Assembly: GCA_965261595.1 (NCBI GenBank)
Contig: CBDHDG010000006.1
Span: forward strand, 864,001-928,000
Source of the DNA: a bacterium
GTDB taxonomy: Bacteria > UBA8248 > JACPRG01 > G963555815
Direction of reading: 5' to 3'
Length of the DNA stretch: 64,000 bases
In this document: one piece after another, positions 3,894-27,309 of the stretch
Layout of the letters: each line of letters starts with the position of its first letter
How positions within the stretch are numbered: the first letter of the stretch is position 1
Made by a program: the position numbers and the translations under genes
The notes under the pieces: model-generated
Database searches by the model: none
What the model was told of the DNA's origin: nothing
The model's input: the letters and a program-made list of their open reading frames with translations, nothing else

Positions 3894-5114
3894 CTACCAT
3901 GTGTCGGCCAATTCCCAGATGATGCGGGCCACCGCCTTCAGGTTCTTATCGAAACGATCTCCGGCCAGATTCTCCGGCCGGTCGAGCACCGTATGATAAT
4001 AATCGTCGAGCTCGTATAGCCAAGCGACGGGCACGCCCGCTTTATAAAATTCATGGTGGTCGCTGTATGGGTTCGGAGGACAGGCCCACTCGGCCACCGG
4101 GATTTCCTGTTCGGTGACAACCCGCTCGACCAAATCGCGGGTCTCCTCGGTGACGTTGATCGTCGTCCCTCCCGGCGCGGCGCAGATAAACGCGTCCAGG
4201 TTGACCACGGCTTTGGCGCGGCCCATTTCCTCACGATGGCGGGACACATACTCCCGCGCCCCCAGGAACCCGAACTCCTCCGCCGGCAGGGCCAAAAACC
4301 GGACGGTCCGCCGTGCGCGTCTGCCGGAGAAAAATCCGGCGAAATCCAGAAGCGCCCCCGTCCCCGAGGCGTTGTCGGCGGCATGCGGACCCAATCCGTG
4401 GCTGTCGAAATGCGATAGGACGTAGACGACCTCCTCCGGCGCCTCGGTCCCCGGAGCGTCTCCAAACAGGAACTCCGATTTCCGGGACTCGTACGCGCCC
4501 CGCACCTCGATGCGCGCCCGGAGAGCGCCCCCGTCCGCCAACGATTGAAGCTTGCGGCTTTGGGAGGACGTAACGGCGACGGCGGGAACGCGCCCGGGAA
4601 GGCCGGAGAGGTTCGTCACGCCGCCCCGAACGGCTTCCTCCTCGAGCCTTGTCCCCATGATGAACCCGACCGCACGGTTCTCCTCCGCCAGCGGAACGGC
4701 CTGGTATGACTTGAAGGCGTCCGCGAGGACGATCCGGCCGATACAGGACCGGCCCGTGCGCGCCATGTCGTCATAGTCTTCGCGGGCGCCGTCTCCAGCA
4801 TAAACGACGGAGGCCTCGACGCCTCCTTCGGGCGTAAGGGCCGAGAGACCGATTCCCTCACAGGGGATGGAAAAAGACTCGGGGGCCGTTACGGACAGGA
4901 CGACGCTGTCGCACCGGTAACCGAGGTATTCCATTTCCTCCGCTTTGAGATCATGCAGTCCTTGGGCCTGAAATTGGCCGCGGATAAACTCCCGAACCTC
5001 GCGTTCCCCGTCAGACCCCATGAACCGGGGCCCAATCGCGCAAACCTTCTCCATAAAAGAAAAGGCCTGGGATTGATGAGAACCCCAGGCCTTTTCGAAG
5101 GCCGGATTGGCCAA
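3894..5114 (-). CDS. M28 family metallopeptidase with PA domain
   Basis: GPRFMGS, SHFDS, AADNASG, AEEFGFLG, NLD, SDH, YYHTVLD motifs; TTG start after GAGGGG. Confidence 0.85.
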   Translation of the reverse strand: MANPAFEKAWGSHQSQAFSFMEKVCAIGPRFMGSDGEREVREFIRGQFQAQGLHDLKAEEMEYLGYRCDSVVLSVTAPESFSIPCEGIGLSALTPEGGVEASVVYAGDGAREDYDDMARTGRSCIGRIVLADAFKSYQAVPLAEENRAVGFIMGTRLEEEAVRGGVTNLSGLPGRVPAVAVTSSQSRKLQSLADGGALRARIEVRGAYESRKSEFLFGDAPGTEAPEEVVYVLSHFDSHGLGPHAADNASGTGALLDFAGFFSGRRARRTVRFLALPAEEFGFLGAREYVSRHREEMGRAKAVVNLDAFICAAPGGTTINVTEETRDLVERVVTEQEIPVAEWACPPNPYSDHHEFYKAGVPVAWLYELDDYYHTVLDRPENLAGDRFDKNLKAVARIIWELADTW

Positions 5115-5409
5115 AACCGCCCCTCCTACAGAACCCTCTGATTTCTATTCAACCGGCCGCCTGCCCTTACGGGCGAACCGAACATCGCACCCCTTGGGCC
5201 CGCCCGGCTCTGACGGGAAGCCCTTGTTCATGGCCGCCAACGGCCGCCCAGGCGATAAACGCTCGGGACCCACAATGGGTCCCGAGCGCTGTTACCGCGA
5301 TGCGAACAACGGACCAGAAACACTCCACCCTAGGCCCCTCTGAGCCTCGAGTGGCATCCGCTTATTTCTTAACCGAATCTCTATCAAACGGCCCCATTTC
5401 GTCTCATCT

Positions 5410-8003: not shown

Positions 8004-8039
8004 AAGGTGAAGGTCCCTTTAAAGGTAAAGGTCCCTTTA
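8004..8039 (+). repeat. 18-bp tandem direct repeat (2 copies, 1 mismatch)
   Basis: aaggtgaaggtcccttta (8004-8021) / aaggtaaaggtcccttta (8022-8039). Confidence 0.8.
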
Positions 8040-8114
8040 AGGGAAGAGTCCCCCGCTCTAGGGTTTTGTTGGACACTCGATTGATCCATGATTCATGGAG
8101 AAAGGGGTGTCGCG

Positions 8115-8501
8115 ATGAACGAACAAAAGCAAGAGGGGGCTTTGGCGGAGGGCGCCCGTAGGGCGAACGGAGCCAAGGCCCCAGGGCATCGCAGTGAGCG
8201 GGGTCGGTTCTCCTGCCAGCGCAAGCGGGAGGCGGTCCTGCGTCTTTTGCGGGGCGAGAGCCTGGAGACGCTCTGCCGCGAGTTGGGCACGACAGCGGCT
8301 CGGCTTTCCGCCTGGCGCGAGGCGTTCCTTCGCGGGGGCGAGGCGGCGCTCAAAGCCCGCCCGGCGGATGAGCGGGACGAGGAGAACGCCCGGCTCAAGG
8401 CCAAGGTGGGCGAACTCACGATGGAGGGCGAGGTCCTGCGGGAGAAGATCGACCGCCTGGAGGCCGGCCGCCCTTTAGCCGGCAGGAGGTGGAGGCGATG
8501 A
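8115..8501 (+). CDS. IS3-family transposase OrfA (HTH plus leucine zipper)
   Basis: RFSCQRKREAVLRLLRGESLETLCRELG..WREAF..LKAKVGELTM; slippery heptamer C CCT TTA at 8471-8477 leads into the OrfB (-1) frame. Confidence 0.85.
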   Translation: MNEQKQEGALAEGARRANGAKAPGHRSERGRFSCQRKREAVLRLLRGESLETLCRELGTTAARLSAWREAFLRGGEAALKARPADERDEENARLKAKVGELTMEGEVLREKIDRLEAGRPLAGRRWRR

Positions 8502-9517
8502 GTCAGGCCCGCTTCACCTCCACGGGCAGAGCCTACGGCCTGAAGCGGGTGTGCGCCCTTTGGGGCTTGGCGCGCTCCACGGTCTACGCGCAACGGCGGC
8601 AAGAGGCGGTCCCCGTTCATGAACGCCCCACGCCCAATAAGCGCGGCCCTGTGGGCCCGTGCACCGATGCGGAACTCCTCGGCCACATCCGGCAGGTCCT
8701 GGAGGACTCTCCCTTCCATGGCGAGGGCTACCGCAAGGTGTGGGCGAGGCTGCGCTTCGCGGGCATCCGCACCAGCAAGGAGCGGGTGCGTCGCCTGATG
8801 CGGGAGGCGGGGCTTCAGGCCCCCCACCGGGTGGGCAAACCCCGAGGTCCCAAGGCCCACAACGGGACCATCCGCACCGAGCGGCCCGACCGAATGTGGG
8901 GCACGCACATGACGACGACGGTGACCACCGATGAGGGGATGGCCTCGGTGTTCGTGGCGGTGGATCACTGCTCGGTGGACTGCGTGGGGATCCATGCGGC
9001 CAAGAGCGGCAACCGCTTCGAGGCCCTGGAGCCGATCCGGCAGGGGGTCGCCGAGCGCTTCGCCGGCTTGGAGGCGGACGTCGCCGAGGGGCTTAAAGTT
9101 CGTCATGACCACGGCCCCGCCTATCTGTCCGATGACTTTCAGCGGGAGATCGCCTACCTGGGCATGACCAGTTCGCCCAGCTTCGTGCGGGCGCCCGAGG
9201 GAAATGGCTACTGTGAGTGGTTCATCCGCATCTTGAAGGAGAATCTCCTGTGGGTGCGCTCTTTCGCCACCGTAGAGGAACTGCGGTGGGCGCTGCTTGA
9301 GTTCAAGAACCCGTGATTATGCCCTTGACGCAGTAAGACACAAGATATGGTGGTCCCTCGAAAATTGAATCCGACCCACTACATGTGGTATATGGAACTT
9401 CAAAGGGTGGAAGCCCCGAGGGAACCCCGGGGCGTTGCTACAAGAGAGGACCTCACAGACCCTCCTTGTAGCAAATCCCCAAGCCCGTGTCAACCTCGAT
9501 TTTCTGGGGGTCTGCCC

Positions 9518-9868
9518 ATGCGTACTATCGGCGGTTGCATACTTACAACTGCCCTCATCGCATCTTCCGCCGTCATGGCTGGAGAATCCAACAAGGCCTG
9601 TTTTATCGGAAAAGGTGCGGTGTACAGCCCCGCTTATGTGGATTTGGAACGAAGAAAACTCATACTTCGCATGTTGGACGATCGCGATTTGGTAGCTTTG
9701 TATAAACTTGGATACCGAAACGCAAAGGAGAAATGGCGTATTTTCATGGTGAGTGAGCATCCAAAAGGATTCCAATACCTGAAGAGCATCCCTGGCTCTA
9801 CGACTTTCCGTTTTGAAGGGGAATTCAAGGTTTTTGAGACGTTGTGCGAGTTCATCTCGTGCAAATAG
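9518..9868 (+). CDS. Hypothetical exported protein (116 aa), cassette ORF1
   Basis: Signal-peptide-like MRTIGGCILTTALIASSAVMA; mature part aligns end to end with ORF2. Confidence 0.7.
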   Translation: MRTIGGCILTTALIASSAVMAGESNKACFIGKGAVYSPAYVDLERRKLILRMLDDRDLVALYKLGYRNAKEKWRIFMVSEHPKGFQYLKSIPGSTTFRFEGEFKVFETLCEFISCK

Positions 9869-9890
9869 GTGGAAAATAAGATTTACAAGT

Positions 9891-9967
9891 GCAGCGCCAG
9901 GGGATCCCGCCCCTGGCGCTGCGGTTCCATCACCACCCAACCTTGAAGGAGGACTGGGGCAATGGAA
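9891..9967 (+). promoter_or_regulatory. Structured leader of ORF2: 13-bp perfect hairpin plus a segment complementary to the start codon region
   Basis: gcagcgccagggg/cccctggcgctgc (9891-9922); ttccat (9925-9930) complementary to atggaa (9962-9967); RBS gaaggagg between them. Confidence 0.6.
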
Positions 9968-10249
9968 GCAAAATGCTTTCTTAAGGAAAAGGCTTTTAGC
10001 CGACCCGCCTATGTCTCCCCGAGAAAACTTAAACTGCTGGTGCAGGTTCTTCAGGACAGAGACTACTTGGCCGTAGAGAGACTTGGAGGAAGATTCAACA
10101 AAAAGCGGAGGCGTGTATTTTTTGTCAGGAAACACCCGCCCCAACATAGGTATCTCAATAGTCCCAAACTTGAGAAGGTGATATTCAGGTTTGCCGGTGA
10201 ATTTGAAGTGAGGATTGCATCGGCGCAACAGGACATCGCGTGTGAATAA
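9962..10249 (+). CDS. Hypothetical protein (95 aa), cassette ORF2, paralog of ORF1 without signal peptide
   Basis: RBS GAAGGAGG upstream; shares CF..PAYV..KL..L.DRD..LG..HP..YL.S..FRF.GEF.V..I.C with ORF1. Confidence 0.7.
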   Translation: MEAKCFLKEKAFSRPAYVSPRKLKLLVQVLQDRDYLAVERLGGRFNKKRRRVFFVRKHPPQHRYLNSPKLEKVIFRFAGEFEVRIASAQQDIACE

Positions 10250-10251
10250 GT

Positions 10252-10324
10252 GCCACGGCTGGGGTATACGGCCCCAGCCGTGGCGTTCCATTAACCCGCA
10301 GCTTGGAGAGCCCAGGCAATGGAA
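10252..10324 (+). promoter_or_regulatory. Structured leader of ORF3, same architecture as 9891-9967
   Basis: gccacggctgggg/ccccagccgtggc (10252-10284); ttccatt complementary to aatggaa (10318-10324); GGAG between them. Confidence 0.6.
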
Positions 10325-10534
10325 TTTAGATATGAAGGATTTGACGTTTTTGGATGGTTCATCTCCGAAGCAGCCTCTAGGGTTATTGATCTTCTCTTCT
10401 ATGCGGGTTTCTACTTGATGGGGATAAGGAATAAGAAACCGCCGAAGAAACGCATCCCACTCGAAATTCGGGGCTCTTACGTCGGGCCACCAGCCATCAT
10501 CAATGGGAGGATATGTGGTTCCACGGGTCCCTAA
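10319..10534 (+). CDS. Hypothetical small protein (71 aa), cassette ORF3
   Basis: Begins at the same leader position (ggcaATGGAA) as ORF2; one hydrophobic stretch followed by a basic patch (RNKKPPKKR). Confidence 0.45.
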   Translation: MEFRYEGFDVFGWFISEAASRVIDLLFYAGFYLMGIRNKKPPKKRIPLEIRGSYVGPPAIINGRICGSTGP

Positions 10535-11041
10535 AAGTGACCCCCTCCTGTTGGATAACCACAACATGTAGTGTCTCAAAATCGCACCTATATCTTGTGT
10601 CTTACTGCGTCAAAGGCATAATCACGCAAGAACCTGTATAACCATCATTGGATTCTCGAGGGCTACGGCTACCGAACGCCGGCCCAGGCAAGGCAGGAAA
10701 AACTCGCTCAAGTTGCGGAGGCCGCATGAGGTCGAATACCCTCACCCGAGTGTCCAATAACCCAGGGGCGGTCCAAGAGAAGGGAAAGTTTAGACCATAA
10801 TGCGCAATCAAATGAATCGGCTGATCGCCGCGCAGTTCATAAATCAAGCATGCTTCCCCTTCCGATGGAGTAGAATTCCTCTCCGGACAAGGATTCACCG
10901 CTTTTCGTAAATCCCGAACATGCGGGCGGACAATCCATCATCAGAACAGCGGGAGGGTTAAACAAAGGTCATCTCGGGAAATCTCTGTTTCGTTGTCTAA
11001 ATCACGCCTTAAAAGGGATGATGAAGCGCGAGGAGGGAAAA

Positions 11042-11413
11042 ATGAAGAAAACCGGTGTTGGGCTGTTACTCGCACTGCTTCTCAGCCTTGGGTTTATTTC
11101 CAGCGCCGAGAGCGCAAAGACATCCGTCGCCGGCTGCGTGAACACCGTTTGCCATGCCTGGTCCTCCGACGGGGATTTGACCCTGATGTTTTGGGTGAAT
11201 AAGACGCGGTTTGTCATCAATCCGAACCGCATCAAACAAAATCGAATCTCAAGCCCCGCCAAGCTGACTCGCGGCCAACTGGCTGAATGGGAACCCATTT
11301 TGGAAGAGCTCCGAATGGCCATCGCGCGCAAAGCGGACGTCAGGGTCTGGTATGACAATTCGTCAAAGTGGGTGACCGATCTCAGGATTCGGTTTCAAAA
11401 GCGGTGCAGGTAG
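11042..11413 (+). CDS. Hypothetical secreted protein (123 aa)
   Basis: RBS GGAGGG; signal peptide MKKTGVGLLLALLLSLGFISSAESA; three Cys in the mature part. Confidence 0.75.
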   Translation: MKKTGVGLLLALLLSLGFISSAESAKTSVAGCVNTVCHAWSSDGDLTLMFWVNKTRFVINPNRIKQNRISSPAKLTRGQLAEWEPILEELRMAIARKADVRVWYDNSSKWVTDLRIRFQKRCR

Positions 11414-11673
11414 AATTCAAGACTTGATCCAGGAATGATTCCGGTCTTGGAAAGAGCGCCCTGTCTTTTCGCGTCGGAGGAGCGGATATTCCTGCCCACC
11501 CGCTTCTCAACCCGGTCATTTCCTTGCGCCCCTCCCCGGAAGGATTGAATCGAGAGGGGGGAGGGGGGGAGGCGTCCCGCATTTCAGACGCGGGGCTCTT
11601 CAAGGCTTTCCGTCCGAGTCAAGCGAAGGCATGGAGTCCATCAATTGTCCGAAAATCCCGACGCACGTAAACC

Positions 11674-26026: not shown

Positions 26027-26988
26027 TCATCCATCCGAGGCCGGCACGCCGTGGTCTTGGGCCTGCAGGCACGCGTAGATGACATCGTGTATCGGCGTGG
26101 GAACCCCCGCTTCCCGTCCCAGACGGACAGCGGCGCCGGCCAGGCTGTCGATCTCCAGGGGCTTGCCGGCCTCCAGGTCCTTCTGAAGCGATGAGCGCAT
26201 GTCCGTGAGGCCCTCCGAGAAGGCCATCACCGTGTCCACAATGTCCCCCGGCAGGCTCACCCCCCGCGCCCGCGCCACGGCCTCCACCTCCCGGACGGCG
26301 GATTCATAGAGCGCCCGGGATTCGGGAAAGTCCAGAACGGCCCGCAGCCCCTTGCGCGTCATGGCCGTCATCCCGCTCATCGGGCAGATGTAGAGGAATT
26401 TGGCCCAAAGCGCGGCGTCGATGTCTTCCGCCATCTCGACGGGGATGTCGGTCCGGTGAAAGGCGTCCCGGACCCTTTCGGCCCGCTCCGCCGGGCGGCC
26501 GTCCCGCTCGCCGAAGACGAGCCGCCTCGGGCCGCTCCCGTGCCGGACGAGGCCGGGCGAGACCAGCGTCGCCTCGATGTAAACCGCCCCGGGCAGGATG
26601 TCCGCCCGGACGCCCTCCCCGGCCAGGGCCTCGGAGAGCCGCTCCGCGCTGTCCACGCCGTTCTGGACGGTCAGGATGAACGTATCGCTTCCCAGCAAAG
26701 GCGGAAGCGAGGCGACCGCGTCTTTCGTGTCCGGCCCCTTGACGGCGAACAGGACCCAATCGACCGGCCCGACCTCGCGGGCGTCTTCCGTCGCCCGGAC
26801 GGATTCGGGGGGAAGCCGGAAATCCCCTCCCCCCCCCCTTCCGACGCGCTCTCGACCCGGAGCCCGTTTTCCCGCATCGCCCGGACGTGATCGCCCCGGC
26901 CGATGAGATGTATCTCTTCCCCCGATCGGGCCAGGATCGCGCCGTAATACGACCCGATGGCCCCGGCGCCCAGGACGGCGATCTTCAC
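26027..26988 (-). pseudogene. panE: Ketopantoate reductase family protein, frameshift in poly-C/G tract near 26820-26840 (possibly sequencing error)
   Basis: VKIAVLGAGAIGSYYG at the N-terminus; TVQNG, LWAKF, SSLQKDLEAGKPLEIDSLAG in the downstream frame. Confidence 0.8.
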
Positions 26989-27031
26989 CTGAGAGACTCT
27001 ATGTTGGAAGGCGGGGGGCGCTTCCCGCGCC

Positions 27032-27279
27032 TTCGCAAGAAAACTGGCCCATTGGCCGAATGCCGGAGCCTTCCGGAGGCGGACGGGCATCCGGCCAAAG
27101 AGAGAGACCACCGATAGGCCGAAGACAACCGGATCAGCCAAACCCACATCCAACCCAGGCAAGGCCAAGCCGTAAGGCTTGGCCCGGTAGGGCGGCCATC
27201 TTGGCCGCCACCGGAAGGCGGGCTGGAAGCCTGCCCCACCAGGGGTCCAGGGGGACGGTTTTTCAAAAAAGCCCCCCTG
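27032..27279 (+). repeat. Dispersed ~240-bp intergenic repeat, copy 2, with an inserted REP pair
   Basis: Same ordered blocks as 14734-14974; extra gtagggcggccatcttggccgcc..gcgggctggaagcctgccccac inside. Confidence 0.75.
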
Positions 27280-27309
27280 TCTTGCTTTGGCGGATAGCCC
27301 GCTCATGGA

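Follow-up and report, generated by a model that had tools for sequence, protein, structure and literature searches.

A probable mobile insertion cassette with ORFan cargo interrupts an IS3-family element

The DNA analysed here is a 64,000-nucleotide stretch of a bacterial contig (lineage UBA8248; assembly GCA_965261595.1, contig CBDHDG010000006.1, positions 864,001 to 928,000), which is referred to as the window and whose own numbering is used throughout. It contains an IS3-family insertion sequence (IS) that is interrupted by a second element of 1315 bp (9312-10626), termed the cassette. The host IS3 element lies on the plus strand with approximate limits of 8069-10757, and its ends are formed by TTGGACACTCG (at 8069) and the complement of this sequence (at 10757). 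OrfA (8088-8501, plus strand) matches HTH_Tnp_1. OrfB, also on the plus strand, runs from 8489 to 9311, is interrupted by the cassette and resumes at 10635-10729; its N-terminal 275 amino acids match the Pfam families HTH_21, rve and rve_3. The cassette is bracketed by an exact 8-bp target-site duplication (TSD), CAAGAACC, whose left copy (9304-9311) and right copy (10627-10634) are identical at 8/8 positions and can be extended at neither side. Immediately inside lie terminal inverted repeats (IRs) of 37 nt (9312-9348, plus strand; 10590-10626, minus strand), which are 97% complementary with 1 mismatch. A subterminal pair of 13-nt inverted repeats (9377-9389 and 10561-10573) is 92% complementary. 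When the 30-nt IR tip was used as a pattern with up to 3 mismatches, it was found at 2 sites of the window, both of them the cassette ends, and in 0/100 shuffles. Further copies of the cassette or of its open reading frames (ORFs) are absent from the rest of the 64-kb window.

Joining 8489-9311 to 10635 onward in silico yields an uninterrupted OrfB that ends with LEFKNLYNHHWILEGYGYRTPAQARQEKLAQVAEAA and a stop codon at 10729, which indicates that OrfB loses its last ~31 residues through the insertion. With an exact TSD and only one IR mismatch, the cassette appears to have entered the IS3 element recently. Its guanine-plus-cytosine (GC) content is 0.497, compared with 0.671 for the surrounding IS3 element and 0.635 for the window. 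A first-pass annotation of this DNA had described a cassette of lower GC content in its interior, nested in IS3 OrfB and devoid of a transposase, with IRs of about 38 bp and one mismatch. The nesting, the exact duplication, the restorable OrfB, the missing transposase domain, the lower GC content and the single mismatch all hold; only the IR length has to be corrected, to 37 nt.

Three co-oriented ORFs on the plus strand, all in one common reading frame, occupy the interior. ORF1 (9518-9868, 116 aa) starts with a signal-peptide-like N-terminus of 27 residues that precedes a conserved cysteine, Cys28. ORF2 (9962-10249, 95 aa) is devoid of a signal sequence, and its codons 1-5 read MEAKC. ORF3 (10319-10534, 71 aa) contains a long helix at residues 10-37 followed by an invariant basic stretch, RNKKPPKKRIPLEIRG. 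ORF1 and ORF2 are paralogs with 33/79 identical residues (42%; E 9e-20), and they are designated alleles 1 and 2 of one gene, ORFx. The two ORFx bodies differ at 122/234 aligned bases (~48% nucleotide identity). In a codon alignment of 78 codons, these differences fall 41, 26 and 55 times on the first, second and third plus-strand codon positions. The plus reading keeps 33 identical residues and the antisense reading 14; codons that differ and yet remain synonymous number 23 and 4, and the BLOSUM62 sums are 161 and 34, respectively. By the Nei-Gojobori method, the proportions of nonsynonymous (pN) and synonymous (pS) differences are 0.41 and 0.91 in the sense reading, compared with 0.51 and 0.57 in the antisense reading. 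Because this comparison favours the plus-strand over the antisense reading, ORF1 and ORF2 are taken to be real, old genes under constraint, as their codon pattern indicates. ORF3 was considered as a frameshifted copy of ORFx and rejected, as its local alignment scores in three frames (21-31) did not exceed those of shuffles (mean 23, maximum 39).

The ORFs are separated by two homologous spacers, IG1 (9869-9961) and IG2 (10250-10318), both on the plus strand. Each carries, in the same order, a GC-rich, perfect 13-bp hairpin, the motif GTTCCAT, a Shine-Dalgarno sequence and GGCAATGGAA with the start codon of the next ORF. The hairpin of IG1 occupies 9891-9922 and is followed by the Shine-Dalgarno sequence AAGGAGG, whereas the hairpin of IG2 occupies 10252-10284; the Shine-Dalgarno spacing is equal ahead of ORF2 and ORF3. 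The spacers share 75% mean column identity, which is above the nucleotide identity of the ORFx bodies. Both fold more stably than all of their shuffles (z -4.37 for IG1 and -5.78 for IG2; 0/200 shuffles equally stable), and 2 of the 7 perfect hairpins with a stem of at least 10 bp in the window lie within this 1.3 kb. Between the IG1 and IG2 stems, 4/13 pairs are changed, each on both sides, and 0 are broken. Since all four changes are compensatory, the hairpin structure is under selection. Smaller secondary hairpins reach into the Shine-Dalgarno sequence in front of ORF2 and into that of ORF3. Located after the stop codons of ORF1 and ORF2, the 13-bp hairpins are intercistronic and do not serve as leaders of independent units. 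ORF1 is instead preceded by a structured leader (9349-9517, plus strand) with nested hairpins, including the arms 9429-9444/9465-9480 (z -2.63 when 9380-9520 is folded), which is unrelated to IG1 and IG2. From 9329 onward the plus frame runs without a stop across the leader, which may be coding now or may formerly have been. The best Rfam match, to IG2 (10251-10326), spans the entire model of an R1162-like plasmid antisense RNA but stays below threshold, at 25.4 bits (E 0.092) where the gathering score is 55. The sole other 13-bp perfect hairpin of the window (5260-5288) lies between two minus-strand genes and is accompanied by only a weak T run, which suggests that the host may use terminator hairpins that lack long T tails.

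Three relatives of ORF3 were found, with 76-94% identity. P0002 (71 aa, 94% identity) is encoded on a 1.8-Mb contig and starts with MEAKCEG, while P0003 and P0004 (78 aa each, 76-78% identity) start with MATKCE. Across ORF3 and these proteins 43/71 positions are invariant, including RNKKPPKKRIPLEIRG, and the C-terminal tails diverge after GPP. For ORF2, a 450-aa repeat protein (P0001) matched over 21 residues and was judged a spurious relative. Considering the cassette as a decayed IS or random host DNA caught between two solo ends, with meaningless ORFs, would account for the want of ORF1 and ORF2 homologs in searches that together covered about 15 billion predicted proteins, and for the promoter that was not found. 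It would leave unexplained the purifying selection between the two paralogs, the conservation of ORF3 in three other proteins, the compensatory hairpin changes and the equally spaced Shine-Dalgarno sequences before ORF2 and ORF3; moreover, a transposase remnant was not found in any frame. We regard such an origin as barely credible. The interior thus shows no trace of a decayed transposase, and its ORFs are under purifying selection.

On the minus strand, a 420-aa ORF (9317-10579) extends nearly from IR to IR in exact codon register with ORF1-3. Used as a query, it retrieved 2 proteins of 297 aa each (P0005 and P0006) among 4078 candidates. Both come from the 1.8-Mb contig that encodes P0002, and P0005 occurs on 3 contigs (protein records only). 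The same antisense frame has thus been annotated as a protein in two sibling copies of the cassette, in sets derived from NCBI/ENA. This annotation, the near IR-to-IR extent of the ORF and the rarity of such openness (a mere 0.5% of shuffles leave the frame without a stop across the non-coding segments) could be taken to mean that it is the real gene, for instance an unrecognised transposase; the cassette would then belong to a new family of autonomous IS, and ORF1-3 would have to be dismissed as artefacts. The paralog comparison decides against this proposal, since protein-level constraint is seen on the plus frame and none on the antisense frame. In addition, the length of the antisense ORF varies by whole plus-strand modules, no family matches it at E<=1 except Galanin (0.14), and three other genomes have ORF3 annotated in the sense direction. 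What keeps the antisense frame open is the lack of in-frame TTA, CTA and TCA codons on the plus strand. We therefore hold a genuine antisense gene to be very unlikely, and the 420-aa ORF behaves as an in-register shadow ORF, as far as its codon pattern tells. That annotators call the antisense ORF is probably the reason why ORF1 and ORF2 have no database relatives. If the antisense frame were also translated, the cassette would code on both strands in register over its full length, a rare situation.

The antisense protein calls allow the sibling layouts to be read by exact prefix and suffix matching and by pairwise alignment. Apart from 1 substitution, sibling A (P0005) corresponds to the window cassette with precisely 9977-10333 removed, a block of 357 nt that stretches from codon 6 of ORF2 to codon 5 of ORF3. 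It is laid out as leader-ORF1-IG1-ORF3, and its ORF3 starts with MEAKCEG, as does P0002. Sibling B (P0006) consists of 199 identical residues that cover ORF3, IG2 and ORF2 back to codon 4, then 39 unmatched residues, and then 59 identical leader residues; its similarity to the window cassette extends to about 9511, and the leader up to about 9496-9511 is common to both sibling forms. Back-reading of the 39 unmatched codons, which is degenerate, gives a possible GGAGGA Shine-Dalgarno sequence, a Met/Val start, ~11 hydrophobic positions and a cysteine at position 28. The pre-sequence of sibling B has the same length as that of ORF1 (27 residues), and its back-read layout is signal-ORF2-hairpin-ORF3. 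Together, the protein calls reveal what appears to be a cassette family of several copies with at least three layouts, whose natural unit would be a two-gene operon of a signal-bearing ORFx, a hairpin and ORF3. Sibling cassettes with different ORF content elsewhere had been anticipated by the first-pass annotation and are found here as protein calls rather than DNA. Its description of three modular leader-plus-ORF units is superseded by one two-gene operon (ORFx-hairpin-ORF3) with two ORFx modules. The three co-oriented ORFs themselves stand, while the hairpin-rich leader ascribed to each of them reduces to homologous hairpin spacers ahead of ORF2 and ORF3 only.

The two alleles comprise an anciently diverged central block, from just before the ORFx start to ORF3 codon 5, between virtually identical arms. 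Within this block the ORFx alleles share 42% amino-acid identity with saturated synonymous sites. The window copy equals the left part of sibling A up to 9976 and the right part of sibling B from 9971, and the two parts overlap by two codons (AAATGC in the window) that are apparently common to both forms. The three-ORF copy is best read as a recent recombinant of forms A and B, and ORF2 as a chimera in which the first five codons of ORF3 (MEAKC) are fused to the mature part of the ORFx of sibling B. The signal-less ORF2 would consequently be a fusion product and not an evolved cytoplasmic partner of an exported paralog, as had been supposed. The recombinant origin would also explain why all ORFs lie in one frame with spacers that are multiples of three. 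Because P0003 and P0004 likewise show KCE at the start of ORF3, the form A junction is probably old and the three-ORF form derived.

The variation of ORFx-plus-hairpin blocks between siblings on a nearly identical backbone, together with a hairpin structure kept through 4 compensatory changes, could also be read as the work of site-specific recombination, with the hairpins serving as sites (like integron attC or repetitive extragenic palindromic elements) for capture and shuffling of ORF-plus-hairpin cassettes. Although the repeated ORF-plus-hairpin arrangement does resemble integron cassettes, the layout junctions are located inside coding sequence (9976/10334 and about 9512/9971), away from the hairpins. 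Whereas attC sites have R'' and R' cores and extrahelical bases, the stems here are perfect and have no bulged bases, and the flank GTTCCAT does not fit the attC core, GTTRRRY. Furthermore, no integrase domain is present in the window, and nothing reaches the Rfam gathering score. We consider hairpin-directed shuffling highly improbable and retain recombination between forms A and B as the preferred explanation of the three-ORF copy.

The search for a transposase within the cassette covered 16 ORFs across frames, none of which reached a curated Pfam cut-off. At E<0.01, Pfam returned 0 families for ORF1-3, a 173-aa extended form of ORF1, the 420-aa antisense ORF and another 11 ORFs of other frames; ORF1-3 and the antisense ORF were likewise without a match in NCBIfam, PADLOC or PHROGs. 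A transposase of the IS1595 or IS1 type was detected neither in the cassette nor among the 58 ORFs of the window. The other transposases of the window are that of the host IS3 element and a split IS1380-type gene (DDE_Tnp_1_4), which lies in two ORFs (712-1119 and 1137-2072; 712-2072 overall) and is probably frameshifted or interrupted. The whole cassette had no match in plasmids and phages by blastn in distant mode, and ORF2 had none in plasmids by tblastn at E<=10.

Other IS families than IS1595 also make 8-bp duplications, and an 8-bp TSD is by itself not diagnostic of an IS family. IS1 makes duplications of 8-9 bp, and it is reportedly linked to IS1595, to judge from the title of a reference. 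The cassette tip matches 9/12 of the first left-repeat (IRL) bases and 7/12 of the right-repeat (IRR) bases of Escherichia coli IS1A without gaps. In contrast, there is no similarity past the tip and no InsA or InsB, and this comparison, chosen post hoc, gives a weak lead. For the IS1595 family, 8-bp TSDs are described as usual, along with a single transposase that has the DDE_Tnp_IS1595 domain (PMC8101967), and 8-bp repeats are attributed to ISApl4 (PMC12561309). The cassette shares the 8-bp TSD with this family, and its tip, CGTGATT, is close to the IS1595 tip motif quoted in the first-pass annotation. Unlike IS1595 elements, the cassette lacks DDE_Tnp_IS1595, as do the 58 window ORFs; this absence is expected of a non-autonomous derivative and does not exclude descent from the family. 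Of the proposed IS1595 assignment the 8-bp TSD remains, while membership is not established with no such transposase in the cassette or window. Both the IS1595 and the IS1 resemblances are leads and do not amount to membership.

The cargo proteins fit no family that we searched. At its N-terminus ORF1 carries MR followed by a 19-residue hydrophobic stretch that ends in VMA (hydropathy KD15 1.96), which resembles a Sec signal. Basic residues outnumber acidic ones in the ORFx domain (22 K+R against 10 D+E in ORF2), which has one conserved cysteine near each end. ORF3 is predicted to form the helix at residues 10-37 and a disordered basic tail (pLDDT confidence 57); E17, R21 and D24 lie within the helix, whose hydropathy is borderline (KD15 1.8). 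Against Pfam and NCBIfam, ORF1-3 and the antisense ORF gave sub-threshold noise only (DUF6363 0.24, SecE 0.1, Galanin 0.14). In a language-model atlas with a lead threshold of 0.9, both ORFx alleles score below that threshold: ORF2 reaches at best 0.77 (clusters of the helix-turn-helix type) and ORF1 0.85 (clusters that are unnamed or named for lysozyme inhibitors). The earlier impression of an unfamiliar family is thus borne out for ORF1 and ORF2, which have neither a usable homolog nor a family match. An action of the cargo in the cell envelope, by an exported small protein and a membrane-associated partner, is weakly suggested by these features.

Two more specific functions were weighed. 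The cargo could be a small addiction or competition module, in which ORF3 would be a membrane-active, type-I-like toxin under RNA control, or ORFx a secreted bacteriocin-like protein or periplasmic inhibitor or immunity protein with ORF3 as its helper. The 28-residue helix and basic tail of ORF3, the small hairpins over the Shine-Dalgarno sequences of ORF2 and ORF3, the signal-bearing, cysteine-bracketed ORFx with its highly diverged alleles, and the automatic naming of one of the nearest ORF1 clusters as lysozyme-inhibitor-like (score 0.85, below the lead threshold) are in line with this idea. On the other hand, PADLOC returned 0 matches for ORF1-3 among defence families and PHROGs returned 0, and no toxin-antitoxin or defence model in Pfam or NCBIfam scored above cut-off. 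The charged residues and borderline hydropathy of the ORF3 helix fit a membrane toxin poorly, the conservation of ORF3 alongside a variable ORFx is the opposite of what a specific toxin-immunity pair would show, and neither an antisense RNA nor a promoter is evident. An addiction or competition module is unlikely, while retaining a real minority chance. The toxin, immunity and defence roles first entertained find no support in the databases searched, and nothing found ties the cargo to defence or toxicity.

Alternatively, ORFx could be a truncated RNA-binding factor of the NusG/KOW type that targets the hairpin downstream of its own gene, the two forming a cognate antiterminator-hairpin pair. 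A profile of ORF1 and ORF2 aligned over 80 columns with PDB chain 8f5g_A, named NusG, sharing the motifs RPA[FY]V and KVIF..AGE, and the two ORFx alleles are each accompanied by a distinct hairpin variant. The E value of 0.17 is not significant, though, and searches of Pfam and NCBIfam relaxed to E<=10 still return no NusG or KOW model. A direct comparison with Escherichia coli NusG and RfaH by hhalign gave a probability of 0.3%, and the signal-like N-termini of the natural ORFx forms do not suit a cytoplasmic transcription factor. The 8f5g_A lead was dropped for want of backing from the family models and hhalign, and a NusG-like role appears very improbable indeed.

Among known systems, the cassette comes closest to what is called a mobile insertion cassette (MIC), namely an element with IS-derived ends and passenger genes but no transposase, of which MIC231 is an example. 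The term is in use in, for instance, PMC3913671 and PMC5444012. It has IRs, a TSD with a restorable target and no transposase inside, and its passengers are under selection. Like MICs, it carries passenger ORFs between terminal IRs, is presumably mobilised in trans, and apparently has siblings of different content. Unlike MICs, its passengers are ORFans, and its siblings differ by allelic ORFx-plus-hairpin blocks and a chimeric tandem form instead of unrelated cargo. It shares with miniature inverted-repeat transposable elements (MITEs) a non-autonomous nature, IRs, a TSD and, to judge from the protein calls, probably several copies. Typical MITEs are far smaller and non-coding, however, whereas the cassette is 1315 bp long and protein-coding. 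Tn3-derived inverted-repeat miniature elements (TIMEs) have Tn3-type IRs of ~38 bp and a 5-bp duplication, in contrast to the 8-bp duplication of the cassette.

Taken together, the cassette is likely a non-autonomous, DDE-type mobile insertion cassette with a two-gene-derived cargo, a transposase supplied from elsewhere and a recombinant A/B origin. A transposase encoded elsewhere in the genome would recognise the cassette ends and would have made an 8-bp staggered cut in the 3' part of the IS3 orfB and inserted the element there. The ancestral cargo would have consisted of ORFx, a basic domain of ~90 residues with a 27-residue signal-like N-terminus and one cysteine near each end, followed by a 13-bp GC-rich intercistronic hairpin and then by ORF3, a small helix-plus-basic-tail protein. 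Recombination would have joined the left half of form A (leader-ORF1-IG1-MEAKC) to the right half of form B (from CFLKEK in the ORF2 body through IG2 to ORF3), and ORF2 would have emerged without a signal sequence and under the translation signals of ORF3. In the RNA, the hairpin may tune the ratio of ORFx to ORF3, either by terminating transcription in part or by stabilising 3' ends, and the second small hairpin, which covers the Shine-Dalgarno sequence, may take part in this control. A bolder proposal describes a platform, in which a conserved backbone of ends, leader and ORF3 carries stackable, interchangeable blocks of ORFx and its cognate hairpin, with ORFx as a new envelope-acting class under allele-specific RNA control; we think this quite unlikely. 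If it were true, ORFx could be, for example, a periplasmic inhibitor or an immunity factor against interbacterial or lytic enzymes.

Several results weigh against the model of a trans-mobilised cassette with recombinant two-gene cargo. An autonomous partner with the same ends, which the first-pass annotation had proposed to look for, was not found in the 64-kb window. A scan of genome contigs with the 21-nt IR tip gave 2 loci, L001 in a metagenome-assembled genome (MAG) of Cloacimonadales and L002 in a MAG of Chitinophagaceae; at each of them, a single IR-tip match is surrounded by seemingly unrelated sequence and lacks a partner repeat within 4 kb. Both were rejected as related elements and judged to be chance, L002 included, where 25 consecutive bases (3996-4021) are identical to the IR tip. 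Neither a word-indexed protein search with ORF1 nor an exhaustive phmmer search of 1.84 billion representatives with ORF2 gave a usable relative. The sibling layouts were read from antisense protein calls and not from DNA, and the IRs and TSDs of the siblings are assumed. The Sec signal of ORF1 was judged by eye and by hydropathy alone. AlphaFold gave no confident model for the ORFx fold (ORF2 with ORF1; pLDDT 36), and a Foldseek search with that model, which is uninformative at such confidence, yielded 0/16 matches at E<=0.001. No sigma-70-like promoter or T-tailed terminator was found in 9200-10750. Finally, neither shadow reading nor codon bias fully explains why none of the four non-coding segments closes the antisense frame, a rarity already quantified above; for the leader alone, it is open in 6% of shuffles.

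The surroundings of the IS3 element have features of their own. At its ends (8060-8079 and 10747-10766) there is no clean 3-bp duplication, and GGGTT recurs in inverted orientation in the flanks; the IS3 element may in truth extend a few bases beyond the TTGGACACTCG ends. An 18-bp tandem repeat (8004-8052, 2.8 copies, unit about AAGGTAAAGGTCCCTTTA) adjoins the left end. To the right, 10750-11650 has a lower GC content of 0.48-0.56 and includes a 131-aa ORF (11018-11413), whose N-terminus is signal-like and which matches no family in Pfam, NCBIfam, PADLOC or PHROGs. The IS3 element itself may be located within a foreign island. Farther away, a ketopantoate reductase gene (ApbA/ApbA_C; 26030-27306) is apparently split into the overlapping ORFs 26674-27306 and 26030-26698.

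Of particular note in this element are the ORFan cargo under selection, the allelic ORFx-plus-hairpin blocks and the recombinant three-ORF form. The insertion into IS3 offers a clean, datable case of one mobile element disabling another. The siblings point to a family of non-autonomous elements that would spread ORFan genes, and public protein sets illustrate an annotation trap, in which the long antisense shadow ORF of the siblings is called instead of the small genes under selection. Within this family, recombination between sibling cassettes would make a new gene, the signal-less chimera, in one step.

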